Source: an uncultured Verrucomicrobiae bacterium
Lineage (GTDB): Bacteria > Verrucomicrobiota > Verrucomicrobiia > Chthoniobacterales > UBA10450
Length of the DNA: 64,000 bases
Direction of reading: 5' to 3'
NCBI GenBank assembly: GCA_963726745.1
Contig: CAVSDR010000003.1
Location: 960,001 to 1,024,000, forward strand
Shown here: positions 21,251-37,868 of the stretch, piece after piece
How the letters are laid out: each line of letters opens with the position of its first letter
Position numbering within the stretch: the stretch's first letter is position 1
Translations under genes and position numbers: made by a program
The notes under the pieces: model-generated
Database searches by the model: none
Told to the model about the DNA's origin: nothing
Seen by the model: the letters and a program-made list of their open reading frames with translations, nothing else

Positions 21251-22042
21251 GTGACGCTCCTCGATCTCCAACACGAAGATTGCGTCGCGGGAATGGCGAA
21301 ATTGCCGCCGGCTTCCGTCGATCTGATCGTCACCTCTCCGCCGTACAACCTCGGCATTCGTTACGGCGCCTATGCCGATACCGCCGAGCGCGCGAGCTAC
21401 CTCGACTGGTCCATGCTTTGGGCCACCGCAGCGCGTCGCGTCTTGAAAACAGACGGCGCTTTGTATCTCAACATCGGCGCCGCGCCCTCGAACCCGATGC
21501 TGCCGCACGAGCTCGTGCTCCGGTTGCGCGAGCTCTTTGTCCTGCAAAACACGATCCACTGGATCAAATCGATCGCGCTCGAAGACGGCACGCGCGGGCA
21601 CTTCAAGCCGATCAATTCCCCGCGCTTCCTGAACGATTGTCACGAATACATCTTCCAACTCACGCCCGAGGGCCGCACGCCGCTCGACCGGCTCGCGCTC
21701 GGCGTGCCCTATGAGGACAAGAGCAACGTCGCGCGCTGGGGCCATACCGAAGGGCGCGATCTCCGCTGTCGCGGCAACACCTGGTTCGTCCCTTACCAGA
21801 CGATCAAGAGCCGCGATCGGCAGCGTCCGCACCCGGCGACTTTCCCGGTCGAACTGGCGGTCAATTGCCTGAAGCTCCACGGCGTCACGCGCGTGCACAC
21901 CATGCTCGACCCGTTCCTCGGCCTGGGGAATTCCGCCGTCGCCGCGCAGCAATGCGGCGTGCCGCAGTTCATCGGCTACGAGATCGATGAAGGCTACCTC
22001 GCGGAAGCGCAGCGTCGCACCGAGGGGACGCTTCCCGCCTAG
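21251..22042 (+). CDS. Site-specific DNA methyltransferase (amino-MTase, beta-class motif order)
   Basis: Catalytic TSPPY before HPATFP and SAM-binding DPFLGLG; probable GTG start at 21251. Confidence 0.9.
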   Translation: MTLLDLQHEDCVAGMAKLPPASVDLIVTSPPYNLGIRYGAYADTAERASYLDWSMLWATAARRVLKTDGALYLNIGAAPSNPMLPHELVLRLRELFVLQNTIHWIKSIALEDGTRGHFKPINSPRFLNDCHEYIFQLTPEGRTPLDRLALGVPYEDKSNVARWGHTEGRDLRCRGNTWFVPYQTIKSRDRQRPHPATFPVELAVNCLKLHGVTRVHTMLDPFLGLGNSAVAAQQCGVPQFIGYEIDEGYLAEAQRRTEGTLPA

Positions 22043-23076
22043 TTTTCCTGCGCGCCGAACTTTGCCAGCGGCTTCACCAGGTTCCCCGGCAACGGCCGCA
22101 CCCGATCGTAGATCCGCTCCGCAATCGGCTTCGCCACCAGGTAACCGGCGGCGAACATTTCCATCCGCGCATCCAGGTTATCGATGTAGTTGAGCGCCAT
22201 CGCTTCCGGTGTTTTCGGCGCCACCGGCGACCCAAACTGCGGCTCCCCATGATGCGCGCCGATCAAGTGCAACAGGTGCAGCCGAACGTCCTCCGAAGCC
22301 GGTGCGAGCGCGCTCCAAGTCTTCCAGTTCTCGCCCGACTGCAGCTTTCGCCAGAGCGAATTGACCAGCTCCATCCCGATCGAGATGTGGCCCATGAGTT
22401 CGCCCCGCTCATCGAAACCCATGGTAAAGCCATTCTCCGGCAGGTGATTTTCCCAGAGCTTGCCGCTGTCGTGAAAGAGGACCCCGGCGATGAGCAGGTC
22501 GCGGTTGAGCTGCGGGTAGAGCGGCACGATCGCCTCGGCCGTGCGCAGCATCTGCGCGGTGTGCTCCACCAGGCCGCCGCGCCGCGCGTGATGGTAGCTT
22601 CGCGCACCGGCGGTGCGCCGGAAGCGGTCGCCAAAGTCCGCCAGGAGCGCTTCGCAAAGCGCGCGCAAGCGCGGATCGCCGATCGTGACCACGCGCTCGA
22701 TGATAAATTCCCAATCCGCTGTCTGTCGGGCGCGTAACTCCGCCGGGCCCGCGAGCAGGTCCGCCGTCTCTTCACTCGTTAGGCGGCGCATTTTCCACTG
22801 TCGCGTCTCCAGCCCGAACTGCGCATGGAGGGCGAAATCGCCCGCGACCTCGATGAACTCCGAAGCCTCGAGGGCGGCGCACGCGCGGTAGTCGGCGTGG
22901 TCGCTCCAAACGCGCAGCGTCATCCGATCGCACGCGTCCGCCAGCGAGAGCTCGCAGTACGGCTTCCCGTCGCGGCTCGCCTTTGGCTCGGAGGCGTTGA
23001 TCTGCACATGCACCCGCGCGGAAACGATCCCGCTCTGGGTGCCGCGGCGGACTTCGCTCAGGCTTAAGAGATCCAC
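22039..23076 (-). CDS. YhaM/Cbf1-like OB-fold plus HD-domain 3'-5' exoribonuclease
   Basis: N-terminal OB fold; YHHARRGGLVEHT, FHDSGK, GHI, AHHG, PKTPEA, IDNLDA. Confidence 0.85.
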   Translation of the reverse strand: MDLLSLSEVRRGTQSGIVSARVHVQINASEPKASRDGKPYCELSLADACDRMTLRVWSDHADYRACAALEASEFIEVAGDFALHAQFGLETRQWKMRRLTSEETADLLAGPAELRARQTADWEFIIERVVTIGDPRLRALCEALLADFGDRFRRTAGARSYHHARRGGLVEHTAQMLRTAEAIVPLYPQLNRDLLIAGVLFHDSGKLWENHLPENGFTMGFDERGELMGHISIGMELVNSLWRKLQSGENWKTWSALAPASEDVRLHLLHLIGAHHGEPQFGSPVAPKTPEAMALNYIDNLDARMEMFAAGYLVAKPIAERIYDRVRPLPGNLVKPLAKFGAQEN

Positions 23077-23095
23077 GCGCGCCGTTTCTGCCGGC

Positions 23096-23626
23096 TTAAT
23101 TCTTGGCCACGCCGATCACGCCGCAGGCCAGGCGGCCACCGGCATCGCCCGTCGGCTGCGACTTCAGGTCGTCGGCTTTCTCGTGCACGATGATTGCGTG
23201 CCCGACGATCGCGTCGTCGCCGCTCAGCTTCATCATCTTGTCGGTTAATTCCAGGTGCGCCTTGCCGCTGGCATCGGCTTCCAGGTTGCCCATGTCACCC
23301 GTGTGGCGCTTCTCCGCATCGTGCCCGGCGTGCGCATCTTTGGTGGGATTGAAATGTCCACCGGCCGAGGTCGCATCAGGGGCCGAGCAATCGCCGAATT
23401 CATGGATGTGGAAGCCATGCTTCCCGGCGGTGAGCCCGCTCACATCCGCGACCACTTTCACGCCGTCGGCCGTCTTGGTGAAGGTGACCGTGCCGAGGAC
23501 CTTGCTGCCGGCGGTCGGATGCAGGACAGCGATGGCTTTCTCAGTGTCGCCAGCCGAGGCGAGCTGCGGCGCGAGGCCGAAGGCGGAGAGAGCGAGAGCC
23601 GAAACGAGGAGGGTTTTCGTGGTCAT
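23096..23626 (-). CDS. sodC: Periplasmic Cu/Zn superoxide dismutase
   Basis: Signal peptide; HGFHIHE, SAGGHFNP, RHTGDMGN, GDAGGRLACG. Confidence 0.95.
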   Translation of the reverse strand: MTTKTLLVSALALSAFGLAPQLASAGDTEKAIAVLHPTAGSKVLGTVTFTKTADGVKVVADVSGLTAGKHGFHIHEFGDCSAPDATSAGGHFNPTKDAHAGHDAEKRHTGDMGNLEADASGKAHLELTDKMMKLSGDDAIVGHAIIVHEKADDLKSQPTGDAGGRLACGVIGVAKN

Positions 23627-23680
23627 GCCCCGAGCATACACCCGCACCGCCGGGCTGCGCAAAATCTGCCAGCGCTTTGC

Positions 23681-24565
23681 TTAATCAATCAGCCGCTGCT
23701 CGATCCCGTCGTAGGCGTCGATCCGCCGATCGCGCAGGAACGGCCAATGCGTCCGCTGCTCGTCGATCCGACCCCACTCCACATCCGCTGCGATGATCTC
23801 CTCCCGGTCGACGCTCCCCTTCGCGAGGATCTCGCCGCTCGGCGCGCAAAGAAAACTCTGCCCCCAAAATTCCAAGCCCGGCCCGCCGACTGGCGCCTCG
23901 TGGCCGACCCGATTGACCGCCGCGACGAAGCAGCCGTTCGCGATCGCGTGGCTCCGCTGCATCGTCTCCCAGCTCGAGTGCTGCGCCACGCCGTACTTCT
24001 CCTTCTCACCGGGATGCCAGCCGATCGCCGTGGGATAAAATAGGAGCTGCGCGCCGCGCAACGCGGTCAACCGCGCCGCTTCCGGATACCACTGGTCCCA
24101 GCAGACACAGACGCCGATGTTCCCGCGCTGCGTCGCCCAGGCCTTGAAGCCGAGATCGCCGGGCGTGAAGTAAAACTTCTCGTAGAACGACGGGTCATCC
24201 GGGATGTGCATCTTGCGATACTTCCCCATGAGCGAGCCGTCGGCGTCGATGATCGCGGCGGTGTTGTGATACAGCCCCGCGGTTCGTTTCTCGAAGAGCG
24301 AGGCCACGATCACCACTTTGTGCTCGCGCGCGACCGCGCTCAGCGCGTCGGTCGACGGCCCGGGAATTTCTTCCGCGAGCGCGAAGTTCGCGTGATCCTC
24401 CGACTGGCAAAAATACTGCGAGCGAAAGAGCTCCGGCAGGCAGACGATCTCCGCCCCTTCCTCCGCCGCCTGGCGAACGAAGCGCACTGCCTTCTCCAGG
24501 TTGGCCGCGGGTTCCACCCCGCAGCTCATCTGCACGAGCGCGACCCGCGAACTTGCCGCGGCCAT
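23681..24565 (-). CDS. Carbon-nitrogen hydrolase, N-carbamoylputrescine amidase-like
   Basis: PELF, YRKMHIPDDP-x-FYEKFYF, CWDQWYPE (E-K-C triad), YPTAIG. Confidence 0.88.
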   Translation of the reverse strand: MAAASSRVALVQMSCGVEPAANLEKAVRFVRQAAEEGAEIVCLPELFRSQYFCQSEDHANFALAEEIPGPSTDALSAVAREHKVVIVASLFEKRTAGLYHNTAAIIDADGSLMGKYRKMHIPDDPSFYEKFYFTPGDLGFKAWATQRGNIGVCVCWDQWYPEAARLTALRGAQLLFYPTAIGWHPGEKEKYGVAQHSSWETMQRSHAIANGCFVAAVNRVGHEAPVGGPGLEFWGQSFLCAPSGEILAKGSVDREEIIAADVEWGRIDEQRTHWPFLRDRRIDAYDGIEQRLID

Positions 24566-24567
24566 CG

Positions 24568-25212
24568 TTACTTCACCGAATCAGCCGGCACGATCTTCAC
24601 GCTCTCGAGCGCGACTCGATTCACCGGCTTGCTGCGCTCGCCGCCGTTGCTCATCGTTACCGGCACGTTCGCCAGCTTATCGAGCACGTCGTCGCCTTTG
24701 ATGATCTTCCCGAAGGTGGTGTATTGCCCGTCGAGCTGCGCCACTTTGCCGAAGCAGAGGAAGAACTGGCTCCCGGCCGAATCCGGATCGCTCGAGCGCG
24801 CCATCGAAAGCACTCCGCGCTCATGCGCCTTTTTGTTGAATTCCGCCTTCACCTTGTAGCCCGGACCGCCCGTGCCCCAGCGGCTTTCGGCCGCGGGATC
24901 TTTCGTGAGGGGATCGCCGCCCTGCGCCATGAAGCCCTTGATGATCCGATGGAACGCGGTCCCGTCGTAGAAGCCTTCCTTCGCGAGCTTCTTGAAATTT
25001 TCCACCGTCTTCGGGGCCACGTCCGGCCAGAACTCGGCGACCATTTCTCCTTCGCTGGTCTTGATGATGGCGACTTCTTTGGCGGCGGGACTGGATTCTG
25101 GCGTCATGGTTGGTTTGGCTGTGGTGGAAGGTGATGGACTGGCCTCCTCGCTGCGGGCATTCGTCACTCCAAGAGCAAGCGCCGCGAGGCAACCGAGCAA
25201 GACGGATTTCAT
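24568..25212 (-). CDS. Cyclophilin-type peptidyl-prolyl isomerase, exported
   Basis: FYDGTAFHRII, QGGDP, SMAR, AGSQFF; signal peptide from ATG 25212. Confidence 0.93.
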   Translation of the reverse strand: MKSVLLGCLAALALGVTNARSEEASPSPSTTAKPTMTPESSPAAKEVAIIKTSEGEMVAEFWPDVAPKTVENFKKLAKEGFYDGTAFHRIIKGFMAQGGDPLTKDPAAESRWGTGGPGYKVKAEFNKKAHERGVLSMARSSDPDSAGSQFFLCFGKVAQLDGQYTTFGKIIKGDDVLDKLANVPVTMSNGGERSKPVNRVALESVKIVPADSVK

Positions 25213-25244
25213 GTTGTGACCACTTCCACGAAGTGCGGGCGAAG

Positions 25245-26216
25245 TCACGCGGGATATCGGCCGGGCTGCCAGAGGCCGGCGATCTCCGGCAAACCGAGCG
25301 CGAGGTTCATGCACTGCACCGCCTGGCTGGCCATGCCTTTCCCGAGATTATCCAGCGCCACCAGGATCGCCGCCGTGCCGTTGGCGCTGACAAACGCGAC
25401 GTCGGCGAAGTTGCTCCCCGCGACCGCGCTCACGCGCGGGCTCCCTTCCACGATCCGGACAAACGGCCGGTCGCGGAAGACCGTCGCTACCCGGGCGGCA
25501 AGATCGACCGCCTCCGGCAGCTGGCATTGCACCGTCGCGAAAATCCCGCGCACGAACGGCCCGCTGTGCGGCACGAAGGAAAACGTCCCCTTGATCTCGT
25601 TTGCCGACATCATCAGCGCCACCTCCCGGTCATGCTGGTGCGCGAGCATCTTGTAAGCGCGGTAATCGCCCGCGCGCGTCGGATGATGCGTCCCGGCCGC
25701 CGCGACCGTGCCGCTGCCACTCGAGCCGGTGACCGCGCTCGCCGCGATGAAGCCGACCTCCAGCCCGCGCAACGGGAGCAGCGCCAGCTGCAAGGCGGTG
25801 GCAAAACATCCCGCGCTGGCGATCCGGCGCGCGCCTGCGAGCTGCTCGCGATTCCATTCCGGCAAGCCGTAAACGAAGCGCTCGTCGAAGCGAAAATCCG
25901 CCGCGAGATCGATCACGAGCGCGTGGTCCGGCAGGTGGCTTTCGAAAGTAGGCAGCAACTTCGCCAGCTCGCCATGCGGCAAGGCCGAGAAAACCACCGG
26001 TTGCTCCGCCTGCGCAAAATCCTTCCACGGGATCTCGCTCTCAAAATTTCCCGGCACCACCCCGAGCAGATTCGGGTGCGCTTCCGCGAACGGCTTGCCG
26101 CCTAACGAGCGCGACGTCCCGCGCACGCTGGCCACGTTCGGATGCAACGCGAGCCAGCGGAGCAGTTCGCCGCCGCCGTAACCGGAAGCGCCGAGAATGG
26201 CGACGTCGAGCTTCAT
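25245..26216 (-). CDS. argC: N-acyl-gamma-glutamyl-phosphate reductase
   Basis: GASGYGG, ALPHG, DLAADFR, VYGLPE, AGCFATA, TGSSGSG, DNLGKG; start ATG 26216. Confidence 0.93.
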   Translation of the reverse strand: MKLDVAILGASGYGGGELLRWLALHPNVASVRGTSRSLGGKPFAEAHPNLLGVVPGNFESEIPWKDFAQAEQPVVFSALPHGELAKLLPTFESHLPDHALVIDLAADFRFDERFVYGLPEWNREQLAGARRIASAGCFATALQLALLPLRGLEVGFIAASAVTGSSGSGTVAAAGTHHPTRAGDYRAYKMLAHQHDREVALMMSANEIKGTFSFVPHSGPFVRGIFATVQCQLPEAVDLAARVATVFRDRPFVRIVEGSPRVSAVAGSNFADVAFVSANGTAAILVALDNLGKGMASQAVQCMNLALGLPEIAGLWQPGRYPA

Positions 26217-27265
26217 TTGCTGCGCAGGTGCGGCCGCAATTTCTCGAGCACGAAATCGCCCAGTTGTTTCGCGTTCGTGCGCGCGTTCACCGCGGGCAGG
26301 CCTAACGACTCCACGAAACGCGTGCCCACGCGGTTGTCCGTCGCCGGGCCGGTGACGACGTCGACGCTCAAGCCAAAAGCGTCGCGAAAATGCGTTACCG
26401 CACCGGCCACGCCCACCGGATCGTTCGCGCAGAGCACGTGCAGCTTCCCCCAGGCCTGCAGCTCCGGGTCCTTCAAGATCGTCTGCACGCCGTACTCGCC
26501 CATGATCCCGTCGCCTGTTTCTGCGATGATCAAGTCCACGTCGCGCGCCGCCAGTTCGCTCAAGATCACGCGCGCCAGCCGCCCCGAAGTGTCCGGCCCG
26601 GTGCAGGCCACGCCTGCATCGGTGAAATCCAGGACCGCATCCGCGCCGTAGTCGCGCATCGAGAGGATGTCGCGTTGCAAACTCACGCCGGTCAGCTTCG
26701 CCCCGCCAACCTTGTAGCCTTCCTGCGAAAGTCGCCGGACGAGTGCACAAGCCGCATGCGTTTTCCCCGCGTTCATGCAGGTGCCGGCGATGTAAACCAC
26801 CGGGACCGGCTTCGCGTCCGGCCGGCCCTTGATCGCGGCCGACTCGATCGTGGCCGGCTGCCCAATGCGGCTGCCAAATTCCGGGAAGAGCAGCACCTGC
26901 CCGAGAATCTCCACCTCGAACGGCTTGCCCACATCGGGGCTGCCGGAGATCGCCTGCCCGATCACGCCACCGACGTTCAGGAGATTGAGCGCGTCGCCTG
27001 TTTTCACCGCGGTCGGCATCACGCCTTCGTAGCCTTGGAGCGCGTTGCGATGGCCGAGCGCGCCCACGATCACGTCGCCATCATGGAGCACGCTCATGCG
27101 CCCGTGCACATCTTCGAGCTGGTTGTAGACGCTCTTCTCGCCGTGCACCCGGCCGACTACCACCGCGCCCGGTCGCACCTCGATCTCGTCGGCTAAAGTC
27201 ACCTGCCGCCCGAGCCGCAAGTTCCGCGTCACGGAGGCAATTTTGTCCAGGTGCGTGCGGATCAT
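26213..27265 (-). CDS. DUF1611-like P-loop protein embedded in the arg operon
   Basis: GDVIVGALGHRNA, P-loop GTCMNAGKT, AKLTG, VLDFTDAG, ETGDG; ATGA overlaps with argG and argC. Confidence 0.75.
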   Translation of the reverse strand: MIRTHLDKIASVTRNLRLGRQVTLADEIEVRPGAVVVGRVHGEKSVYNQLEDVHGRMSVLHDGDVIVGALGHRNALQGYEGVMPTAVKTGDALNLLNVGGVIGQAISGSPDVGKPFEVEILGQVLLFPEFGSRIGQPATIESAAIKGRPDAKPVPVVYIAGTCMNAGKTHAACALVRRLSQEGYKVGGAKLTGVSLQRDILSMRDYGADAVLDFTDAGVACTGPDTSGRLARVILSELAARDVDLIIAETGDGIMGEYGVQTILKDPELQAWGKLHVLCANDPVGVAGAVTHFRDAFGLSVDVVTGPATDNRVGTRFVESLGLPAVNARTNAKQLGDFVLEKLRPHLRSK

Positions 27266-28446
27266 GGTTCGTTCCTCTTCATCGCGAGCATCTGCGGCAC
27301 GCCAAAAATTTTCCCGTAGGCCGCCGCTTCCGCGCCGGTCCAAAACGACGTCCCCTCGCCGTAGCTCGCGATGTCCGCGCGCATCAAGCTATGCGGCGAG
27401 CGCACGCCTTCGACCGTGAAACTCCGCGGACTTAAACGCAGCCGCACCTCGCCGCTGACCATCGCCTGGCTGGATGCGAGGAAAGCCTCGAGGTCGCGCG
27501 CCAGCGGATCGAAGAATTGCCCTTCGTGCAAGAGCGAGCCGTAGAGATTGCCGAGGTTTTCCTTCCAGAACATCTGCTTCCCGGTGAGCACGAGCTTCTC
27601 CAGCTCGCGATGGGCCGCGATCAATAAATGCGCCGCCGGCGCTTCAAAGCCGACCCGCCCTTTGATCCCGAGAATGGTGTCGCCGAGATGAATTCCGCGC
27701 CCGATGCCGAACGAGCGGCCAAGCGCATTCAGTCGCTCGATGATCGCAACCGCGTCCAACATCTCGCCGTCTAATTTCGCCGGCACGCCCTGCTCGAATG
27801 CGATCACCAGCGTGTGCGACGGCGTCGCCGGGTCGATCGCGCCGCCGGGATAAGCCTCCTCCGGGAGATGCTGCCACGAGTCATGCGTTTCCTTGCCGCC
27901 GATGCTCGTGCCCCACATCCCTTCGTTGAAGCTGTATTGCTCCACCTTCTCCGGAAACTGGAAGCCGCGGGCATCGAGGTAGGCGCGCTCTTCCGCGCGA
28001 GTCGGCGCGAGGTCGCGGATCGGCGTGAGAATTTCCAAGCCCGGCGCGAGCGTGCGAAAGGCCACGTCGAACCGCACCTGATCGTTGCCCGCGCCGGTGG
28101 AGCCGTGCGCGAGCGCGCCCGCGCCGATCTCCTGCGCATAGCCGACCACACGCCGCGCCTGGCAGACGCGCTCCGCGCTCACCGAAAGCGGATACAAGCT
28201 GCCGCGCAGGACGTTTCCGAAAAGGAGAAAACGGATGTAATCGCGGAAGAGTTCCTCACGCGCATCGATCGTCCGGTGCGAGGCCGCGCCCAGTTTGCCA
28301 GCGAGTTCTTCGATCCGCTGGAGCTCCGCGGCGTCGAAGCCGCCGGTGTTGACCGTGACCGTGTGGACTTCGCGGCCCTGCTCGCGCAGCCAGAGGACGC
28401 AGTAGGAAGTGTCGAGGCCGCCGGAGAAAGCGAGGAGGGTTTTCAT
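27262..28446 (-). CDS. argG: Argininosuccinate synthase
   Basis: AFSGGLDTS, YPLSVSAER, HGSTGAGNDQVRF, GIKGRVGFEAPA; start ATG 28446. Confidence 0.95.
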   Translation of the reverse strand: MKTLLAFSGGLDTSYCVLWLREQGREVHTVTVNTGGFDAAELQRIEELAGKLGAASHRTIDAREELFRDYIRFLLFGNVLRGSLYPLSVSAERVCQARRVVGYAQEIGAGALAHGSTGAGNDQVRFDVAFRTLAPGLEILTPIRDLAPTRAEERAYLDARGFQFPEKVEQYSFNEGMWGTSIGGKETHDSWQHLPEEAYPGGAIDPATPSHTLVIAFEQGVPAKLDGEMLDAVAIIERLNALGRSFGIGRGIHLGDTILGIKGRVGFEAPAAHLLIAAHRELEKLVLTGKQMFWKENLGNLYGSLLHEGQFFDPLARDLEAFLASSQAMVSGEVRLRLSPRSFTVEGVRSPHSLMRADIASYGEGTSFWTGAEAAAYGKIFGVPQMLAMKRNEP

Positions 28447-29759
28447 TTCCAATCGAAAAGGTCGGCGGTTTTCTGCGCGAGGAACTGCCGGCGCTCCGCC
28501 AGCCAATCCCGGCTGCGCGACAGCCCGTCGGCTAACGAGTCATAATCCGGCGTCTCGGCCGCGGAGGATTCTGCGGAAAACTTTCCGCGCTGGAGCTGTT
28601 GCGCGACCTGCTGGTAAGCGTCGCGGAAGGGCGTGCCTTCTGCCGCCAACCGGCAGGCTTCACGCGCCGCCTGGAGCTCGTCGGTGCAGGCCGCCGCGCA
28701 AGCTTGCTGGTTAATTTCGAGGCCCGGAAGAAGATGCGTCAGCACGCGGAAAAGCTCTTCGCCTTTCGCAGTGATCTCGAGCAGCGGCGCCTTCAGCAGT
28801 TGCTGGTCGCGGTGATAACTCGAGGGCAATCCGCCCGCGAGTTGCCCGAGCAAGCCGGCCAGCCCGCGCAGTTCGCGGCAGCGCGCTCGCGCCAGCTCGA
28901 GCACGTCGGGGTTCCGCTTCTGCGGCATCAAACTCGAGCCAGTGGTGAAAGCATCCGGCAGCCTAACGAATCCATATTCCTCCGTGCTCCAGACGAGCAA
29001 ATCCCAAAGCGCCTTCTCCAGCGTGCCGCCGGCGGAAGTGATCCACGCCGCCAGCGCTTGCTCGTGGCGCCCGCGGCTGTTCATCACATCGATCGGGCTG
29101 CGCTGCGCGCGCGAAAAGCCGAGCAGCTCGGCGCTGCGCTCGCGGTCGAGCGGGACGGGCGATCCGAAGCCCGCGGCCGCGCCCAGCGGGGAACGATCCA
29201 GCCGCTGCCAAAGTGCTGGCAGTTGCTCCAATTCCTCGAGCAAACCTTCCGCAAAAGCGGCACCCCACATTCCCCAACTCGAAGGCATCGCCGGCCGCAT
29301 ATGGGTGTAGCCCGGCAGGACGATCGCCCCATGCTTTTGCGCGAGCGCGAGAAAGGCCGCGGCGCAGCCGTGCAGCGCCTCGCCCAGGTCGAGCAGGCGC
29401 GCGCGCATGAGCAAGCGGAGCGCGGTTTGCACCTGGTCGTTGCGCGAGCGCGCGAGATGAATCCGGCGCCCGGTCGCGCCGAGCTTGGCGGTCAAGGCGG
29501 CTTCCAGCGCAGTGTGCCCATCTTCCTGCTCGGGCGTGATTGTGGGCGGATTTTCTTGCAGCGTCCGCAATTCCCTAACGAGTGCTTTCGCTTCCGCTTC
29601 CGGGAGCAGGCCGGTCTCGCCGAGCATGCGTGCATGCGCCGCGCTCGCTTCCGCATCAAAGGGCAGGAGCGCGAGATCGGTCACGCGATCGTTCCCGACG
29701 GTGAACGCATGGAGCTGTGCATCGAGCGGCAGGTCCTTGGCCCAAAGCGACTCAGACAT
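28443..29759 (-). CDS. argH: Argininosuccinate lyase
   Basis: IHLARSRNDQ, PGYTH, TGSSLMPQKRNPD, PFRDAY; start ATG 29759. Confidence 0.95.
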   Translation of the reverse strand: MSESLWAKDLPLDAQLHAFTVGNDRVTDLALLPFDAEASAAHARMLGETGLLPEAEAKALVRELRTLQENPPTITPEQEDGHTALEAALTAKLGATGRRIHLARSRNDQVQTALRLLMRARLLDLGEALHGCAAAFLALAQKHGAIVLPGYTHMRPAMPSSWGMWGAAFAEGLLEELEQLPALWQRLDRSPLGAAAGFGSPVPLDRERSAELLGFSRAQRSPIDVMNSRGRHEQALAAWITSAGGTLEKALWDLLVWSTEEYGFVRLPDAFTTGSSLMPQKRNPDVLELARARCRELRGLAGLLGQLAGGLPSSYHRDQQLLKAPLLEITAKGEELFRVLTHLLPGLEINQQACAAACTDELQAAREACRLAAEGTPFRDAYQQVAQQLQRGKFSAESSAAETPDYDSLADGLSRSRDWLAERRQFLAQKTADLFDWK

Positions 29760-30822
29760 GCGCCACCTCCGCTTGCGCGACGCGCGCGAAATACTCACGG
29801 GCCAGCTGCGCGTAAAAACCGGCGCCGGCGTCGAGTTCCGAGAGAAGCAAATACTCGTTAGGCCGATGGCTCCGGTGAGTGTCGCCGGGCCCGGCCTTGA
29901 CTGCCGGGAGATCACGCAGGAAAGCCCAGTCCGACGCGGTCGCAGAACCGATCGACTCACGCCGGCCTGCGGCCGCGAGGGCGGCCTGCACGATCGCTTC
30001 TTCGGGATCAGTCCCGACCGGTTCGTAGCGCATCGAATGCACCGCGACTTCGCTGTCCAAAGTGCCGGCTATTTTGGCGGCAACTTCGGCCTGCTGGAGA
30101 TTCGGCGTGGTCCGCAGATCGACGAAGAATTCGCAGGTGTCCGGCACCTGATTCCGCGCCAGGCCTCCGTGGATTTGCGTCGTCTGCGCACGGGTTTCGC
30201 CAAGAAGCGGGTGCGGCTCGAAGCGCATCTCCGCGAGCCTGGCGATGTCGCTCGCAGCGACATGGATTGCGTTCCGCCCGAGCCCCGCGTGGGCCACGTG
30301 CGCCGACTCCCCGCGCGCGGTGCACTGCAACAGGAGCATCCCGCGCTGGGCGGTGCACACTTCGAGCGCCGTCGGTTCGCCCACGACCGCGGCATCGAGC
30401 GGGCCGAGGAGCGGTTTGACTGCGCGGATCCCGTCGCCGCCGCGCTCCTCCATTTCCACAAAAGCGAAAGTGACGCGTCCCTCGAGCGCTTCCGCGCGCA
30501 GAGCGCGGGCAGCCAGGATCATCGCGGCCACGCAGCCCTTGGCGTCGTTCGCGCCCAGGCCGGTCAGTTTGCCGTCGACCCAGCGCGGCTGCAGTGGATC
30601 ACTCGACCAGCCTTCGCAGGCCGGGACAGTGTCGAGGTGACTAACGAACAGAAGATGCGGGCGCGCCGCCGCGCCGAGGCTGAACCAGATGCTCGCACCG
30701 GCGCGCTGGACCTCGAAGCCTTCGTCGCGCAACTGCGCGCCCAGCTTGTCGGCTAATTCCGCTTCGCTCCCCGAAACGCTCGGAGTGGCCACGAGGAACT
30801 CCAGGAGGGCGGCCGCATTCAC
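29752..30822 (-). CDS. argE: M20-family deacylase (ArgE-like)
   Basis: SHLDTV, GLGANDAKG, MEE, GEPT, GPG...HRPNE; inside the arg operon. Confidence 0.82.
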   Translation of the reverse strand: MNAAALLEFLVATPSVSGSEAELADKLGAQLRDEGFEVQRAGASIWFSLGAAARPHLLFVSHLDTVPACEGWSSDPLQPRWVDGKLTGLGANDAKGCVAAMILAARALRAEALEGRVTFAFVEMEERGGDGIRAVKPLLGPLDAAVVGEPTALEVCTAQRGMLLLQCTARGESAHVAHAGLGRNAIHVAASDIARLAEMRFEPHPLLGETRAQTTQIHGGLARNQVPDTCEFFVDLRTTPNLQQAEVAAKIAGTLDSEVAVHSMRYEPVGTDPEEAIVQAALAAAGRRESIGSATASDWAFLRDLPAVKAGPGDTHRSHRPNEYLLLSELDAGAGFYAQLAREYFARVAQAEVAHV

Positions 30823-31715
30823 GGGCTCGATTCGTTAGGCCGCTGCGCCACCACCATCGTGCCGCTGCCTTCGTTGGTGAAGACCTCGGCGAGGATGGCA
30901 TCGGAAAGCAGGCCGGAAACGAGGTGAACGCTCGGGACGCCGTCGGACAAGGCGTCGCGCGTGGCCGCGATCTTTGGTTTCATCCCGGTTTGGATCGCGC
31001 CGCTCGCCTCGAGTTCGTTCAGTTTCGCCAAATCGACCAGCGGCAGGAGGCTGCGCTCGTCATTTGGATTCGCGAGCAGGCCGGGCGCGCGCAGGACAAA
31101 GAAAAGTTTCTCCGCGCCTAACGAGGAGGCGACCGCGGCCGCGACGGAGTCGGCATTGGTGTTAAGAATTTGCTGTTTGTCGTCCACGGTGAAAGGCGCG
31201 ATCACCGGGACGTAGTGCGCGCTGATCAAGTGACGCAGGAGTTGAGGACGGACTTTCTCGATGTCGCCCACGCAACCGAAGTCGACCGTCTGGCCATCGA
31301 TCTCCACCGGAGGGCGGCGCCGACTGCGAATGAGTCCGCAGTCCTGCCCGGACAAGCCCACCGCCGGCAAACCGGCCGCCTGCAGGTCGGCGATCAAGTT
31401 CATCTGCGCCTGGCCTTTCAAGGCCATCTTCGCGACCTCGAGTGCTTCGGGCGATGTGATCCGCCGGCCGCCGACCTTGCTCGTGCTCACCCCGAGCTTT
31501 TCGCACAGCGCGTCCGTCGCCGGGCCGCCGCCGTGCACGATCACCAGCGGAATGGCAAAGCTGGAGAGCAACGCGAGCTGGCCGCAGACGCTCCGGCGCA
31601 GGGTGTCATCGGCCAGAATGTCGCCGCCGATTTTGACCACGAAAGGTTTGTCGCGAAAGGCGCGCACGTATTTGGCGGCGTCCTTCAGCGGATCGAATGG
31701 GGAGGAGTGCGGCAT
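30819..31715 (-). CDS. argB: N-acylglutamate kinase
   Basis: FVVKIGG, IVHGGG, GRRIT, NTNAD, GMKPKI, GSGT; start ATG 31715. Confidence 0.93.
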   Translation of the reverse strand: MPHSSPFDPLKDAAKYVRAFRDKPFVVKIGGDILADDTLRRSVCGQLALLSSFAIPLVIVHGGGPATDALCEKLGVSTSKVGGRRITSPEALEVAKMALKGQAQMNLIADLQAAGLPAVGLSGQDCGLIRSRRRPPVEIDGQTVDFGCVGDIEKVRPQLLRHLISAHYVPVIAPFTVDDKQQILNTNADSVAAAVASSLGAEKLFFVLRAPGLLANPNDERSLLPLVDLAKLNELEASGAIQTGMKPKIAATRDALSDGVPSVHLVSGLLSDAILAEVFTNEGSGTMVVAQRPNESSP

Positions 31716-31720
31716 CGTCG

Positions 31721-32707
31721 TTAGTTCAGCAACCATTCAAGCAGCGCACGCTGCACATGAAAGCGGTTTTCCGCCTCGTCGATCACGCGGCTGCGCGGCC
31801 CGTCGAGGACCGCGTCTGCGATCTCGACATTCCGGCGCACCGGCAGGCAGTGGAGGAAAATCGCGTCGCGCGCTGCCTGGGCAAAGTGCTCCGGCGTGAC
31901 CATCCAACCGGGAAACTGCGTGACTGTTTCCGGCGGCAACCCCGCAGCCGTCGCTGGTCCCCAGGCCTTCGCGTAAACCGCGCGCGCGCCAGCGAGGGCG
32001 GCGCTTTGCTCGTGCGTGAAAGTGATGCTGCCACCGGTGGCCGCGGCGTATTGTGCGGCCTCGGCGATGACGCTCGGGTGCAATTCGAAGCCCGGCGGGT
32101 GGGCCACGCGGATCTCACAGCCGCGCGCCGCGGCGGTCAGGAGAAAGCTATTCGGCACGGCTTTTGGCAGCGGTTTGATGTGTGGCGCCCAGGTGAGGGC
32201 AACGGGCAGGCCGCGCGCGGCGCCGAAGTTTTCCTCGATCGTGAGCAGGTCGGCCAGACCCTGGCAGGGATGCTCGCGCGCGCTTTCCAGACTAACGACC
32301 GGCACGGTCGCGAATTGCTCGAAGGCATGGAGGATGCGGTCGGCGTTGTCGTCGTCGTCGTTTTGGTTGGCGGCGAAAGTGCGCACGCCGAGCGCGTCGA
32401 CGTAACGGCTGAGCACGGGGACCGCTTCCTTCAGATGCTCGGGGCGATCGGCGTTCATGATCGCGCCAACGCGATCCTCGACCTTCCAGGTGTCGCCGGT
32501 GTCGAGCACGATGGCGTTGCCGCCGCCGCGGAGCATGACCGCCTCGAAGGAAGTGCGGGTGCGCAGCGAGGGATTGAAGAAAAGCAGGCCGAGGATCTTG
32601 CCGGCTAAATTCTGCTGGTGCGGCTGGCCTTTCGCGGCCTGCGCTGCGGCCAGGAGCCGGTCGACGTTTTCCAGGCCGAGCCGGGCGATCGAGGTGGCGT
32701 GCTGCAT
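31721..32707 (-). CDS. argF: N-acyl-ornithine transcarbamylase (ArgF'), succinyl-type signature
   Basis: FFNPSLRT, DRPEHLKEA, HPCQ, TWAPHIKPLP, HCLPVRRNV: AOTCase/SOTCase-type motifs rather than classical OTC STRT and SMG. Confidence 0.88.
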   Translation of the reverse strand: MQHATSIARLGLENVDRLLAAAQAAKGQPHQQNLAGKILGLLFFNPSLRTRTSFEAVMLRGGGNAIVLDTGDTWKVEDRVGAIMNADRPEHLKEAVPVLSRYVDALGVRTFAANQNDDDDNADRILHAFEQFATVPVVSLESAREHPCQGLADLLTIEENFGAARGLPVALTWAPHIKPLPKAVPNSFLLTAAARGCEIRVAHPPGFELHPSVIAEAAQYAAATGGSITFTHEQSAALAGARAVYAKAWGPATAAGLPPETVTQFPGWMVTPEHFAQAARDAIFLHCLPVRRNVEIADAVLDGPRSRVIDEAENRFHVQRALLEWLLN

Positions 32708-32713
32708 GACTCG

Positions 32714-33838
32714 TTAGCCGAAGCGATGCACTTCCGCGGCGAGCGCAGCCATCGCGTCGTCACTCAGGTTCAAGGGCGGCATCAGCCGCAAAACCTCCGG
32801 GTCGCTGCTGCCACCGACGAGGATGCAGTTCTCTTGCAGGTGTGCCTTCAGCTCCTTTGCCGCCCCCGGGACTTCGAGGCCGAGGAGCAAGCCGCTCCCG
32901 CGCACCGCCTGCACGCAGGAACCGTCGAGCATTTGCCGGAGCTTCCGCTCGCAGGTGAGCGCGCGCTCCATCAATTGCTCCTGCTCGATCACCTCGAGCG
33001 TGGCCAGCAGGGCCGCGCAAGCCAGCGGTGAGCCGCCGAAAGTGCTGCCTAAATCGCCCTGCTTAAGCTGCGCCGCGATTGCTTCCGTCATCAGCAATGC
33101 GCCGATCGGCACACCGGAGGCGAGGCCTTTCGCGCTCGTGATCATGTCCGGCAGCACACCATGTTTGGTCGCTGCATACGGGAAACCCAGGCGGCCCACG
33201 CCGGTCTGGATCTCATCGAAGATCAAGAGCGTGCCGGCTGCACTCGTTAGGCGGCGGAGCTTCTCCAGGAAGCTGGTCGTCGCCGGTCGAATCCCGGACA
33301 TGCTCTGGATCGGCTCGAGCAGAACCGCGGCGACGGTGGCGAAATCGAAGGCGTCGAGCGCAGCTTCGTCGTTCCAGGGCAACTGCGTGCAAGGCGCAAG
33401 CAACGGCGCGTAAGGCGCGGAGATTTTCGGGTCGTCGGTCAGCGAAAGCGGGAGGGTGCCGCGGCCATGCCAGCCGCCGGCGAAGGCGGCGAAGCGATGG
33501 CGCCCGGTGATTTTGACGGCCACCTTGAGCGCGTTCTCGTTCGCTTCGCTGCCGCTATTGCAAAAAAAGACGCTCGCCATGCCGGCGAACCTAACGAGTG
33601 CTTCCGCGGCTTGATTCCGCACCGGCACTTCCGCGGCGGTGCTGTAGAATAAAAGCTCGTGCGCCTGCGCGCTGATCGCGTCGGCTATTTTCGGGTGCGC
33701 GTGCCCGGTGCTGCAGACGCAATGGCCGCCGTAAAAGTCGAAGTAGCGGCGGCCTTCCGCATCGAAAACGCAATCGCCTTTCCCGCGCACGAGCGGAAAC
33801 GGGTAGGGCGGGTAGGTCGGTAGGAGCGCGGCGCTCAA
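32714..33838 (-). CDS. argD: N-acyl-ornithine aminotransferase
   Basis: DFYGGH, CNSGSEANE, HGR, EPIQ, DEIQTG, SAKGLASG, GSTFGG. Confidence 0.9.
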   Translation of the reverse strand: MSAALLPTYPPYPFPLVRGKGDCVFDAEGRRYFDFYGGHCVCSTGHAHPKIADAISAQAHELLFYSTAAEVPVRNQAAEALVRFAGMASVFFCNSGSEANENALKVAVKITGRHRFAAFAGGWHGRGTLPLSLTDDPKISAPYAPLLAPCTQLPWNDEAALDAFDFATVAAVLLEPIQSMSGIRPATTSFLEKLRRLTSAAGTLLIFDEIQTGVGRLGFPYAATKHGVLPDMITSAKGLASGVPIGALLMTEAIAAQLKQGDLGSTFGGSPLACAALLATLEVIEQEQLMERALTCERKLRQMLDGSCVQAVRGSGLLLGLEVPGAAKELKAHLQENCILVGGSSDPEVLRLMPPLNLSDDAMAALAAEVHRFG

Positions 33839-36800
33839 GGATGATATTCCTGGAGGCTCTTCACGGTGATGCCGTGACTTTGCAGGGCGCGAATCCCGAC
33901 CACGCTGGCCTGGGCGGCGCGCATCGTGGTGATGATCGGGATCTTCGCGGTGCGCGCGCGGCTGCGCATGGTCAGCTCGTCTTCGCGCGGAATTTTGCCG
34001 CTCGGGGTGTTGATGATCAGCTGGACGTCGCCGTTCATGATCCGATCGAGCACGTGCGGCCGACCTTCGCGCAGCTTGAAAACGCGCGTCACCGGCAGGC
34101 CGGCTTCGCTCAAGGTATCGGCGGTGCCGCTGGTCGCGATGATCCCGAAGCCTAACGAGAGGTAATCCCGCGCCAGCGGGACGACGCGCTGCTTGTCGGT
34201 GTCTTTCACGCTGATGAAAACGTTGCCTGTTTTCGGGAGCGGCGGCGGCGCGGCCATCTGCGACTTCGCGTAGGCGCGGCCGAGGTCGACGTCGATGCCC
34301 ATGACTTCGCCGGTGGATTTCATCTCCGGGCCGAGGGCGGTGTCGCTCCCGAGATAACGCAGGAACGGGAAGACCGGCTCCTTGACCGAGAAATGTTTCG
34401 GCAAAATCTCTGCGGTAAAACCGAGCGTGCTCAGCTTTTCGCCGGCCATGACTTTGGCCGCGAGCTTGGCCAGCGGAACGCCGATCGCCTTGCTCACGAA
34501 CGGGACCGTGCGCGAGGCGCGCGGGTTGACCTCGAGCACGTAGAGGTCGTCGCCTTTGACGGCGAACTGCACGTTCATCAGGCCGCGCACTTCGAGCTCA
34601 CGCGCCATCGCTTTCGTCGCGGTGGAGATTTCAGCCAGCACTTTGTCGGGGAGCGAAAACGTCGGGATGGCGCAGGCGCTGTCGCCGCTGTGAATGCCGG
34701 CGAGCTGGACGTGTTCCATGATCGCGCCGATGACCGCGGTCTCGCCGTCGGCAATGCAATCCACATCCACCTCGACCGCGTCCTCGAGGAAGCGGTCGAC
34801 CAGAATAGGCCGGTCGGGGCTGACCTCGATCGCCGTCTGCATGTAGCGCGCGAGATCGGTGTCGTTGTAGACCAGCTCCATCGCCCGTCCGCCAAGGACA
34901 AACGATGGCCTAACGAGCACTGGATAGCCGACACGCTGCGGCGATCGCAAGCGCTTCCTCCGCGCTGACTGCGGTGCCGCTGGGCGTTTGCCGCAGGCCG
35001 AGCTTGTCGAGCATGGCGGCGAAAAGCTTGCGGTCTTCCGCTTTCTCGATGCTCTCGGGTTGCGTGCCGAGAATGGGGACGCCGGCCGCGCGCAGGCCGG
35101 CGGCGAGGTTGAGCGGAGTTTGTCCGCCGAACTGCACGATCACGCCCTCGGGTTGTTCCTGGTCGTAAATGTTGAGCACGTCTTCGAGCGTGAGCGGCTC
35201 GAAGTAGAGTTTGTCGCTGGTGTCGTAATCGGTCGAAACGGTCTCGGGATTCGAGTTCACCATGATCGTCTCGAAGCCGAGCTCGCGGAGCGCGAAGGCG
35301 GCGTGCACGCAGCAGTAATCGAACTCGATGCCCTGGCCGACGCGATTCGGGCCGCCGCCGAGGATCATAATCTTCCGGCGATCGCTCCGACGCATCTCGT
35401 TCTCGGTCCCGTAGGTCGAGTAGTAGTAGGGAGTAAAAGCTTCGAATTCCGCCGCGCAGGTGTCGACCAGGCGGTAAGTCGGGATCACGCCTAACGACTT
35501 ACGAAGGTCGCGGATCGCGGACTCCGATGGAATTCCAGGCGACCGCGAGCTGGCGATCGGAGAAGCCGAGCTTCTTCGCGCGGCGGAGGGTGTGGAGGTC
35601 AGGCTTCCAGCCTGACTCGGCGAGCAGGCTTCCAGCCTGCTCATCTCCTAACTGCAAAACGGCCGCATCACGTAGAACAAACGAACCGGACGCCAATCCG
35701 GCCAGATCGGGATTCCGCCGGATATATTCCCGCGAAGCCGCCAGATGCGCTGCGTCGTGGACAATCGTGTCGAAGCTCTCAGCCATCCAAACCGGTCCGG
35801 CATGCTGCAAGTCGCGGTTGAGTGCATTGGCAGTGAAGGATTTCCAGGAATGCAGTATCTCGCCGAGGGTCCGTCCCTCGTTAGGCCGGACGAGAACATG
35901 CACGTGGTTAGGCATGACCACGAAGGCGTCGAGCGCGTAGCGTTCGCCGTCGAAATGCTCGAGCGCTTCCGCGACAACCTTGGCGGCAGCCGGTTGCGCG
36001 AGCAGGCAGCTGCCATGGCCGCGGTCGAGCCATTCCTCGCGGTTTTCTTCGCAGAGGCGGAGGTATGAGCGGGCGGTTTGCCAATCCCATGGCTGAGGGT
36101 GCGCAGCCACGAATCGCTCGGTTTCCTCGCGCCACTGCTCGAGGACTTCTGCCGGGACAGAGTCGGCCAGGCGGAAAGTGACGAAGTAGGTCGCGCCGGG
36201 TTGTTCCCAGTGGGGGAGATGGCGGCGGGTTTGGTGGATTGCGGCTTGTGGGTCCAGGCCCTGGAAGATTGGTGGCTCTTTGCGACGGGCTGGAAGCCCG
36301 TCGGCCGAGTCAGCCTGGAAGCCTGACTTCCGGGCTTGTGGCAGGTCCGCGGCAGCTTCCACGATTTGGCGGATGTTGTGCAGGAACCACGGGTCGATTT
36401 TCGTCAGCTGGTGGATTTCTTCGGTCGTTAGGCCGTCCTGGAAGGCTTGGGCGACGTAGAAAATGCGCTCGGCGTTCGGGACGGCGAGCTTCAGGCGGAG
36501 CGCCTCGGGGTCGACGCGTTTTTCGGCGCCGTCGGCGCAGAGGCCAAAACGTTTGATCTCAAGCGAGCGCAATGCTTTTTGTAGCGCTTCCTTGAAGGTG
36601 CGGCCGATGGCCATGGCTTCGCCGACGCTTTTCATTTGCGTGGTGAGCGTCGCGTCTGCTTGCGGAAATTTTTCGAAGGTGAAGCGCGGGATTTTGACCA
36701 CGCAATAATCGATCGTCGGCTCGAAGCTCGCCGGCGTCTCGCGGGTGATGTCGTTGCGGATTTCGTCGAGGGTGTAGCCGACCGCGAGCTTGGCCGCGAT

Positions 36801-37766
36801 CTTAGCAATCGGGAAACCGGTGGCCTTGGAAGCGAGCGCGCTCGAGCGGGAAACGCGCGGATTCATCTCGATGACGCACATCCGGCCGTTCTGCGGATTG
36901 ACAGCAAATTGAATGTTCGAGCCGCCGGTCTCGACGCCGATCTCGCGGATGACCGCGAAGGAAGCGTCGCGCATGAGCTGGTACTCGCGGTCGCTTAAAG
37001 TCTGCGTGGGCGCGACGGTGATGGAGTCGCCGGTGTGCACGCCCATCGGATCGACGTTCTCGATCGCGCAAATGACCACGCAGTTGTCCGCGCAGTCGCG
37101 CATCACCTCCATCTCAAATTCCTTCCAGCCGACAAGCGATTCCTCGATCAGGACCTCGCTCACGGGGGAAAGCTCGAGGCCGAGGCCGGCGATCTGGTCG
37201 AGTTCCTCGCGGTTGTAGGCAATGCCGCCGCCGCGTCCGCCGAGGGTGAAGGCCGGGCGGATGATGAGCGGGAAGGTGCCGATGTTGTCGGCAATTGTCG
37301 AGAGCTCGCCTAACGAGTGCGCGACTCCGGAGCGCGGGACGTCGAGTCCGATGCGGAGCATGGCTTCCTTGAAGAGCTGGCGATCTTCGCCCTTGGCGAT
37401 GGCCTGGGCATTCGCGCCGATGAGCTTCACGCCGTGGCGCGCGAGCGCGCCGTTGCGATTCAATTCCATCGCGGCATTGAGCGCGGTCTGGCCACCCATC
37501 GTCGGGAGGATCGCGTCCGGCTTCTCGCGTTCCATGATCGCCTCGATCACCTCGGGAGTGATTGGCTCGATGTAGGTCCGGTCGGCAAATTCCGGATCGG
37601 TCATGATCGTGGCCGGGTTCGAATTAACCAGCACCACCTGGTAGCCCTCCTCGCGCAACGCCTTGCAGGCTTGCACCCCGGAATAATCGAACTCGCACCC
37701 TTGGCCAATGACGATCGGGCCGGAACCGATAAGGAGGATTTTCTTGAGCTCGTTGTTGCGCGGCAT
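33835..37766 (-). CDS. carB: Carbamoyl-phosphate synthase large subunit with an in-frame RAYT insertion (apparent +1 frameshifts near 35527 and 34938)
   Basis: [59 protein letters not shown] domain INTP; start ATG 37766. Confidence 0.96.
35594..35642 (+). repeat. REP-like double-hairpin repeat, distal end of the RAYT cassette
   Basis: GGAG GTCAGGCT-TCC-AGCCTGAC TCGGC GAGCAGGCT-TCC-AGCCTGCTC; GTGG at 35592-35595. Confidence 0.9.
36283..36331 (-). repeat. REP-like double-hairpin repeat, proximal end of the RAYT cassette (inverted copy)
   Basis: Minus strand GGAA GTCAGGCT-TCC-AGGCTGAC TCGGC CGACGGGCT-TCC-AGCCCGTCG. Confidence 0.9.
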
Positions 37767-37818
37767 CGGCGCGCGAACATTAGACGAAAAGGTTGGCGCG
37801 TCACGAAGGAATGCTTCG

Positions 37819-37868
37819 CTGGGCGAGATGCCCAGGAGGCCCACAGGCGGAACGCCTGGGCGACACGG
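37819..37868 (-). repeat. Degenerate REP-like double hairpin upstream of carB
   Basis: Plus strand CTGGGC-GAGAT-GCCCAG, then CAGGCG-GAA-CGCCTG. Confidence 0.5.

Follow-up and report, generated by a model that had tools for sequence, protein, structure and literature searches.

Several kinds of enzyme are known for the first step of arginine synthesis, the N-acylation of glutamate: ArgA (TIGR01890), ArgJ (PF01960), the short GNAT synthases (NF005921) and, in Bacteroides, a GNAT-type N-succinylglutamate synthase. Here we describe gene X, a candidate for the same pathway step, in an arginine operon of an uncultured Verrucomicrobiae bacterium. It lies on a stretch of 64,000 nucleotides, analysed as a whole and called the window below (GenBank assembly GCA_963726745.1, contig CAVSDR010000003.1, positions 960,001 to 1,024,000). 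X matches none of the ArgA, ArgJ and GNAT models, shows no sequence or fold likeness to these enzymes and, among the genomes searched, never occurs in the same genome as the classical first enzymes.

The closest described protein is ACG33_RS14135 of Steroidobacter, for which the GapMind study of 2026 (bioRxiv 10.1101/2024.10.14.618325; PLoS Genet 12 Nov 2026, PMC13759103) predicted the role of N-succinylglutamate synthase. The grounds given there are conserved placement in arginine clusters, lack of co-occurrence with ArgA and the residue pattern of the neighbouring ArgF', with no experiment (PMC13759103). The same study also relies on a weak similarity of ACG33_RS14135 to DgcN found with Foldseek (7XRJ, E 1.4e-7), reports the ArgF' residue pattern in 70 proteins and presents the Steroidobacter case as one without ArgE altogether (bioRxiv 10.1101/2024.10.14.618325); the acyl donor is not named in the sections available.

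ACG33_RS14135, as described there, and X are both hypothetical proteins of arg clusters that also contain argB, argC, argD, argF', argG, argH and, in some cases, argE. Neither co-occurs with ArgA, both stand beside an ArgF' with A, P, S or V at position 92, and both have a remote fold likeness to 7XRJ. Three gammaproteobacterial X loci (L066, L067 and L075) have no argE in the cluster, as described for Steroidobacter. Because every descriptor matches, and because of these loci without argE, X almost certainly belongs to the ACG33_RS14135 family, the match being one of descriptions. No Steroidobacter-named homologue was among the 120 matches listed for a gammaproteobacterial copy of X, and we found no further literature reports of the family beyond GapMind 2026.

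Based on its genomic context, its complementarity with ArgJ and ArgA, a specificity residue of ArgF' and a natural fusion to ArgB, X probably makes N-succinyl-L-glutamate, replacing ArgA or ArgJ. The pathway would then be linear and succinyl-protected, leading from X through ArgB, ArgC, ArgD, ArgF' (as a succinylornithine transcarbamylase) and an ArgE-type desuccinylase to ArgG and ArgH. The preliminary description of this locus had seen in X a non-orthologous N-acyl-L-glutamate synthase, possibly succinyl-forming, DUF1611-like and new as a first arginine enzyme. Comparative evidence supports the role; the novelty does not stand, the same role having been predicted in print in the GapMind text, and neither does the family label. 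What is new here is that X, judged by its sequence profile, falls outside the DUF1611 family and nearer to dethiobiotin synthetase (BioD). The interesting part of X is its chemistry, together with an N-terminal domain that matches no solved structure.

Genomic context of gene X

The open reading frame (ORF) of X is intact and encodes 350 amino acids on the minus strand, from an ATG at 27265 to a TGA at 26213-26215. Its start codon overlaps the argG stop codon (27262-27264) as ATGA, and its stop codon overlaps the argC ATG at 26216 in the same way. Translation places the motifs GTCMNAGKT at residues 161-169, AKLTG at 189-193 and DFTDAG at 213-218. The intact gene, its coupling on both sides and the three motifs were thus as first described. 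The gene order on the minus strand, carB-argD-argF'-argB-argE/DapE-type M20-argH-argG-X-argC, was likewise confirmed with Pfam and NCBIfam models, and the tight junctions with the junction sequences: most genes overlap or nearly abut, through TTGA at carB/argD, GTGA at argB/argE, 8 nt at argE/argH and ATGA at three other junctions.

Among 8000 candidates scored, 3408 proteins are related to X at E <= 0.001. A search without a word index gave 1394 cluster representatives at the same threshold, full-length down to about 30% identity. The relatives among the 120 matches listed are all unnamed or 'hypothetical' and have no precomputed Pfam domain.

We then compared gene order, read by matching the window's own Arg proteins, at X loci from one genome per species, keeping the best 80 of 270 confirmed loci. 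In these loci X is 58-92% identical to the window's copy. They come from Chthoniobacterales/Udaeobacter, Holophagaceae/Geothrix, Myxococcus/Hyalangium, Gammaproteobacteria, Solibacteraceae, Fimbriimonadaceae and Planctomycetota, and cover six phyla (Verrucomicrobiota, Acidobacteriota, Myxococcota, Gammaproteobacteria, Armatimonadota and Planctomycetota). The argC gene directly follows X in 77 of the 80, the remaining 3 stopping at a contig edge. Upstream, argG precedes X in 70 loci; 8 others begin too near a contig end and 2 (L083 and L091) have another arg order. Most loci contain the full argD-argF'-argB-argE-argH-argG-X-argC block, and the three gammaproteobacterial loci named above contain the block without argE.

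Distant paralogues occur outside arg operons, in Verrucomicrobiota genomes with ArgJ (L003:1366-2361 and L004:1402-2427, both on the plus strand). Their identity to X is 33% and 29% by tblastn, respectively (29% and 26% in the alignment), and the L003 paralogue directly follows an M20 peptidase gene. Both retain GK[TS], K190, D199 and E249. Since these residues are kept in a setting outside arg operons and together with ArgJ, the wider X family probably acts on other substrates.

Complementarity with ArgJ and ArgA

The absence of ArgA and ArgJ, noted earlier for the window, extends to the whole genome. The assembly that contains the window, 7 contigs with a total of 3.41 Mb, is 94.7% complete. 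Neither a match to ArgJ (PF01960) nor a full ArgA was found in it; all that the ArgA model picks up is the kinase domain of argB (116.5 bits vs a cut-off of 202.85). Thirteen GNAT (PF00583) matches were found in the genome, none of them inside the window, and none of the 13 reaches the NCBIfam cut-offs for N-acetylglutamate synthase (best 28.3 bits vs 180 for NF005921).

Other X carriers give the same result. ArgJ is absent from all five X-carrying isolate genomes (Geothrix fermentans, G. rubra, Holophaga foetida and two Myxococcus) and from all 40 further X-carrying genomes. The ArgA model matches all of the 40, never above its cut-off, and the top matches cover the kinase part only. In the GapMind text, Myxococcus xanthus is given as an auxotroph for branched-chain amino acids alone. 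While the sets of carriers may share genomes, no searched X-carrying genome had ArgJ or full ArgA, which agrees with the phylogenetic profile proposed in the preliminary description.

Of 201 sampled genomes of the same phylum, 197 carry ArgJ. Among the four that lack it is the window's genome (G000), the only one of the sample with a close X; two other genomes have full-length distant relatives of X (33% and 29% identity), and nine more give short P-loop matches only. The pattern within the order is the cleanest evidence for complementarity. In the window's own genus (g1), 9 of 18 genomes carry X, unpublished genome G246 included, and none carries ArgJ, whereas twelve other genera of the order have X in 0/12 and ArgJ in 12/12.

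Nine of the 18 genomes of this genus (G246-G263) lack both X and ArgJ. Most are fragmentary, G247 among them is 96% complete, and it is possible that arginine synthesis has truly been lost in part of the genus. One genome, G260, has a second X-like stretch beside the intact X (C14:57640-58428), with 67% identity and five in-frame stops, and split X-like copies on another contig; the second stretch resembles a decayed duplicate, or else an artefact of assembly.

In a sample of 81 Acidobacteriota genomes, X is found in 18 (unpublished genome G297 included), ArgJ in 16 and both in none, compared to about 3.6 genomes expected under independence. Full ArgA is found in a single genome, which has ArgJ and not X.

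Several points weigh against assigning the first step to X. Related genomes are non-independent samples, and X, ArgJ and ArgA are all absent from 47 of the 81 Acidobacteriota genomes (G201, G274-G353), so the Acidobacteriota evidence gives only modest support; either the 47 have other unrecognised first enzymes or carrier-protein routes, or many of them are incomplete or auxotrophic. Moreover, carB is interrupted in the window (see below), and therefore the arginine pathway is possibly not running in this organism. Finally, some Myxococcus GNAT frames weakly resemble the ArgA acetyltransferase domain (E ~4e-10, model positions 318-411) and the window's genome has its 13 unassigned GNATs, which leaves room for a first step carried out by an unlinked GNAT.

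If so, X would be an accessory nucleoside triphosphatase (NTPase), for example a chaperone that inserts metal into the M20 deacylase, or else a regulator or the kinase of another step. Such a function would fit a Foldseek search with the whole X model, in which SRP/FtsY GTPases come first (E 2e-7) and 7xrj is not among the matches listed, as well as VIA-align matches to UreG (Z 14.2) and HypB (Z 14.1), the unassigned GNATs and the distant paralogues (26-29% identity) outside arg operons in genomes with ArgJ. We nevertheless consider it unlikely. X is kept in clusters without argE (L066, L067, L075, L083 and L091), as in the Steroidobacter case without ArgE (GapMind, bioRxiv 10.1101/2024.10.14.618325). 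No Cys/His metal motif was seen in X, where C163 varies and lies outside the columns conserved in at least 90% of members. None of the 13 GNATs reaches the synthase cut-off, and both the fusion to ArgB described below and the strict complementarity with ArgJ would be left unexplained. A GTPase or metallochaperone reading was rejected on three of these grounds, namely the lack of a conserved metal motif, the retention of X without argE and its complementarity with ArgJ.

Acyl group, fold and chemistry

The acyl group can be judged from ArgF', the carbamoyltransferase of the operon. In the Xanthomonas campestris enzyme, exchange of Glu92 for Ala, Pro, Ser or Val switches the substrate to N-succinylornithine (GapMind Appendix 2 citing Shi et al. 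2007; bioRxiv 10.1101/2024.10.14.618325). The window's ArgF' has Pro89 at this position (NADRPEHL aligned with DGDTEEHI of the wild type, 3kzc), and its best-scoring PDB chain, 3l04, also carries Pro there. Among the 56 X loci that cover the region, 45 have Ala at this position, 9 have Pro, one has Ser and one Thr; no locus has Glu. With Pro, Ala or Ser at the Glu92 position, the arginine pathway of X-carrying operons most likely runs on succinylated intermediates.

A product such as N-acetyl-L-glutamate, or another acyl form, would agree with the name of the argF' model (N-acetylornithine carbamoyltransferase), and the acyl specificity is read from one residue only. We regard it as very improbable, given that 55 of the 56 loci have A, P or S and none has Glu at the position, that Pro stands there both in the window's enzyme and in its best PDB match, and that the same pattern is reported for 70 proteins in the GapMind text.

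A link between X and the next enzyme of the proposed pathway, ArgB, comes from a natural fusion. Protein P0196 (626 amino acids) has X at residues 4-312 and an AA_kinase domain at 363-597; it is named 'acetylglutamate kinase' by JGI, and the identical sequence is present on 4 contigs. A complex predicted for X and ArgB scored 0.35, compared to 0.00 for the best of 3 controls. Of 157 solved complexes 116 attain the mark of this scale, as do 2 of 215 mismatched pairs; at scores <=0.60 it is attained by only 18 of the 157 solved complexes and by both passing mismatches. Across the runs, contact agreement was at least 64% and the predicted local distance difference test (pLDDT) of the partner at least 91. 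Weak support for an X-ArgB complex can be drawn from these models. A fusion of X to ArgC (P0199, 687 amino acids) occurs on one contig only and was not used as evidence, because the ATGA overlap of X and argC lets a single indel fuse both.

The AlphaFold2 model of X, built from a 73-sequence alignment, has a pLDDT of 97.5 and a predicted template modelling score of 0.93. Its N-terminal domain (about residues 1-130) is all-beta, and residues from about 150 to 350 form an alpha/beta P-loop domain. In a structural search against representatives, the P-loop domain alone was matched. VIA-align ranked the DUF1611 protein 2g0t first (Z 17.2; root-mean-square deviation (rmsd) 3.2 over 177 aligned residues), followed by the BioD structures 3of5, 1a82 and 3fgn (Z 16.1, 15.8 and 15.8), CTP synthase 7dpt (Z 15.5), the DUF1611 protein 2obn (Z 15.2), DgcN 7xrj (Z 14.6; rmsd 3.4, 180 aligned) and formyl-tetrahydrofolate synthetase 4ioj (Z 13.5). 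The N-terminal domain folded alone (pLDDT 79.1) gave no fold match (best VIA Z 3.4, Foldseek E 0.32); at a pLDDT of only 79, this missing match is no proof of a new fold.

Two groups of proteins come closest to X in structure. DUF1611 proteins including DgcN (7xrj, 2g0t, 2obn) share with X a two-domain architecture, a length of about 350 amino acids and a BioD-like C-terminal P-loop fold (Z 14.6-17.2), and DgcN N-acylates glutamate according to its PDB title and the GapMind text. Their N-terminal domain, however, is a Rossmann-like DUF1611_N, whereas that of X is all-beta and without a match. BioD (TIGR00347; 1dts, 3fgn), CTP synthase and CobQ/CobB share with X the GTxxxxGKT loop and the aligned Lys, Asp and Glu. 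X is not BioD proper: it scores 16.1 bits vs the TIGR00347 cut-off of 83.3, the genome has a separate bioD (G000:C6), and X differs from BioD by its extra 148-residue N-terminal domain and by Met164 where BioD has Thr11.

By sequence profile, X is nearer to BioD. No Pfam family matches X at E <= 0.001; at a lax threshold the best is DUF1611 (17.3 bits vs a cut-off of 25, residues 146-186 only), then MobB, CbiA and AAA_26. Among 73 members of the X family, 21 match DUF1611 weakly (best E 1.3e-5), 27 match MobB and 22 CbiA, and none matches DUF1611_N (PF17396). We aligned the X profile with hhalign against 29 DUF1611 sequences, all with PF07755 and PF17396, and against 15 BioD sequences from related genomes. 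X vs DUF1611 gave 44.7% (E 2.3e-4) over 180 columns, in the P-loop domain only (X columns 147-347), and X vs BioD 93.7% (E 1.8e-7) over 128 columns; DUF1611 vs BioD gave 86.2% (E 4.9e-6) over 171 columns. Against PDB sequences the best match of the X profile was again a BioD (3fgn, E 1.6e-4), with no DUF1611 structure among the matches listed; the single X sequence found nothing significant there (best E 0.17). In the ESM Atlas, X clusters are named 'DUF1611 domain-containing' or not at all.

The residues of the P-loop domain point in the same direction. Throughout the 73 members G167 and K168 of the Walker A loop are invariant, and T169 is present in at least 90%. K168/T169, K190, D199 and E249 of X are aligned with the invariant K15/T16, K37, D46 and E107 of the BioD alignment (numbered as in that alignment), and all of them persist in the 26-29% identical paralogues. 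True DUF1611 proteins have GTDCNVGKM and TGQTG, that is GK-M instead of GK-T, and an invariant Gly (G196) where X has K190. Accordingly, the comparison with DUF1611 and DgcN proposed in the preliminary description held for the C-terminal fold and failed for the Pfam cut-off, the N-terminal domain and the P-loop signature; with the profile nearer to BioD, the DUF1611 label was dropped.

In E. coli BioD, K15, T16, K37, D54 and E115 (E. coli numbering) serve Mg-ATP binding and phosphoryl transfer, the Lys standing after strand 2 and the Asp and Glu binding Mg2+. BioD, CobQ/CobB, CTP synthase and formyl-tetrahydrofolate synthetase all make C-N bonds via a phosphorylated intermediate.

By analogy, X would be an ATP-dependent amide ligase of the dethiobiotin synthetase type. 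Its P-loop domain would bind Mg-ATP via K168/T169, K190, D199 and E249, and X would convert free succinate to succinyl phosphate by phosphorylating one of its carboxylates. Attack on this intermediate by the alpha-amino group of L-glutamate would then give N-succinylglutamate, ADP and phosphate, and the all-beta N-terminal domain could act as a lid or contribute the substrate site. While the gene context, the complementarity, the ArgF' residue, the fold and the residue conservation are observed, we infer from these comparisons which reaction X catalyses, which acyl group is involved, that ATP is used and what the residues and the N-terminal domain do. Because X keeps the complete BioD-type residue set that is lost in DUF1611, we tentatively favour the N-succinylglutamate role combined with ligation of free succinate at the expense of ATP over transfer from succinyl-coenzyme A (CoA).

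In the latter case X would be a succinyl-CoA:L-glutamate N-succinyltransferase whose P-loop holds the phosphates of CoA and not ATP. The context and complementarity evidence for the role applies to it equally. In addition, the leading fold matches include DUF1611 structures (2g0t, 2obn and 7xrj), 21 of the 73 members weakly match the DUF1611 Pfam model, some members are named 'DUF1611 domain-containing protein' by NCBI, and the GapMind prediction builds on the likeness to 7XRJ and through the comparison with the acetyltransferase DgcN implies such a transfer. Nevertheless, X stays under the DUF1611 cut-off, no family member has DUF1611_N, the profile lies nearer to BioD, and X keeps the GKT, K190 and D199 that true DUF1611 proteins lack. 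Transfer from succinyl-CoA is a less favoured alternative, and one to be taken seriously.

The ATP-dependent ligation has its own difficulties. The top single structural match is a DUF1611 protein, 2g0t; it is ahead of BioD by only about 1 Z, so that the DUF1611 and BioD matches are nearly tied. DgcN, the only structural neighbour that acylates glutamate, is named an N-acetyltransferase, and in work of Yu and colleagues from 2023 it reportedly uses acetyl-CoA. To our knowledge, all enzymes so far characterised that N-acylate glutamate in arginine synthesis rely on acyl-CoA or acyl transfer. Other NTP-dependent roles would agree with an intact Walker A as well, and the mechanistic roles of the BioD residues would apply to X by analogy.

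The operon in this genome and the wider family

The features of the operon are collected in Table 1. The ArgE and DapE models tie in score on the M20 deacylase, all under their cut-offs, and no acetyltransferase domain was found in argB with Pfam or the ArgA model.

Table 1. Gene X, its domains and aligned residues, and the other genes of the arginine operon (positions in the window)
Feature	Position	Strand	Basis
Gene X, candidate N-succinyl-L-glutamate-forming enzyme	26213..27265	-	ORF, translation; no Pfam/NCBIfam family above cut-off
X N-terminal all-beta domain, residues 1-148	26822..27265	-	DSSP of full AlphaFold2 model
X C-terminal P-loop (BioD/DUF1611-type SIMIBI) domain, residues 149-350	26213..26821	-	VIA-align, hhalign
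Walker A loop, G161-T-C-M-N-A-G-K168-T169	26759..26785	-	Sequence; aligned with BioD GTDTGVGKT
Lys190 codon (AKLTG)	26696..26698	-	Invariant; aligned with invariant BioD Lys37
Asp199 codon	26669..26671	-	Aligned with invariant BioD Asp (D46, BioD alignment numbering)
Glu249 codon (AETGDG)	26519..26521	-	Aligned with Glu of BioD VEGxGG
argC	25245..26216	-	TIGR01850, 270.6 bits vs cut-off 233.6; ATGA overlap with X
argG, argininosuccinate synthase	27262..28446	-	PF00764 and PF20979; ATG at 28446 overlaps argH stop
argH, argininosuccinate lyase	28443..29759	-	Lyase_1; ATG at 29759, 8-nt overlap with argE end
ArgE/DapE-family M20 deacylase, presumed N-succinylcitrulline desuccinylase	29752..30822	-	Peptidase_M20 and M20_dimer
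argB, N-acylglutamate kinase, start 31736 or 31715	30819..31736	-	TIGR00761, 206.5 bits vs cut-off 151.3
argF', N-acylornithine carbamoyltransferase	31721..32707	-	NF003384, 406.7 bits vs cut-off 288
argD, N-acylornithine aminotransferase	32714..33838	-	Aminotran_3; ArgD models below their cut-offs
carB, interrupted: three ORF pieces and insert 35616-36326	33835..37844	-	

The operon had been called otherwise complete, which is not borne out for carB. Residues 1-488, 507-702 and 706-1069 of E. coli CarB map onto three separate ORFs, and an in-frame insert of about 711 bp splits the oligomerisation domain. The insert codes for an IS200/RAYT-like protein of the Y1-transposase type, and its first ~46 nt at one end return in inverted form, over ~39 nt, at the other boundary and at three other genome sites. 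Related carB genes on soil-metagenome contigs skip the insert, and the genome has one carB locus only. The reading frame also appears to change twice, near 35537 and 34930; both changes may be assembly errors, because split ArgE and ArgD matches are also seen in related long-contig assemblies.

Downstream of argC (22039-25314, minus strand) lie genes for a cyclophilin-type peptidyl-prolyl isomerase, a carbon-nitrogen hydrolase, a Cu/Zn superoxide dismutase and an HD-domain protein. The position of the isomerase and the hydrolase is kept in five related loci (L013, L014, L015, L017 and L023), and that of the isomerase alone in L018. A search of sequencing runs listed no RNA run with this sequence, and no run contained more than 0.15 of the sampled words.

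The operon is a clear case of horizontal pathway replacement: X is 58-92% identical in six phyla but confined to a single genus of its own order. When pathways are inferred from soil genomes of Verrucomicrobiota, Acidobacteriota and Myxococcota, the step usually missing from arginine synthesis is the first, and genomes that lack it are scored as arginine auxotrophs. If the proposed role is true, X would close this gap for thousands of genomes.

The chemistry would reach further. It is conceivable, with less confidence than the role itself, that the first step is independent of CoA and is carried out by a succinate-activating BioD-type ligase whose N-terminal fold is absent from solved structures and which possibly works in a complex with ArgB. 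Should its chemistry depend on ATP, X would be the first enzyme to N-acylate glutamate for arginine synthesis independently of an acyl-CoA pool, and the amide-forming P-loop enzymes of the BioD, CobQ and CTP synthase type would be extended to amino-acid N-acylation. The wider X family, with its paralogues outside arg operons beside M20 peptidases, would then represent a new class of ATP-dependent N-acyl-amino-acid synthetases.

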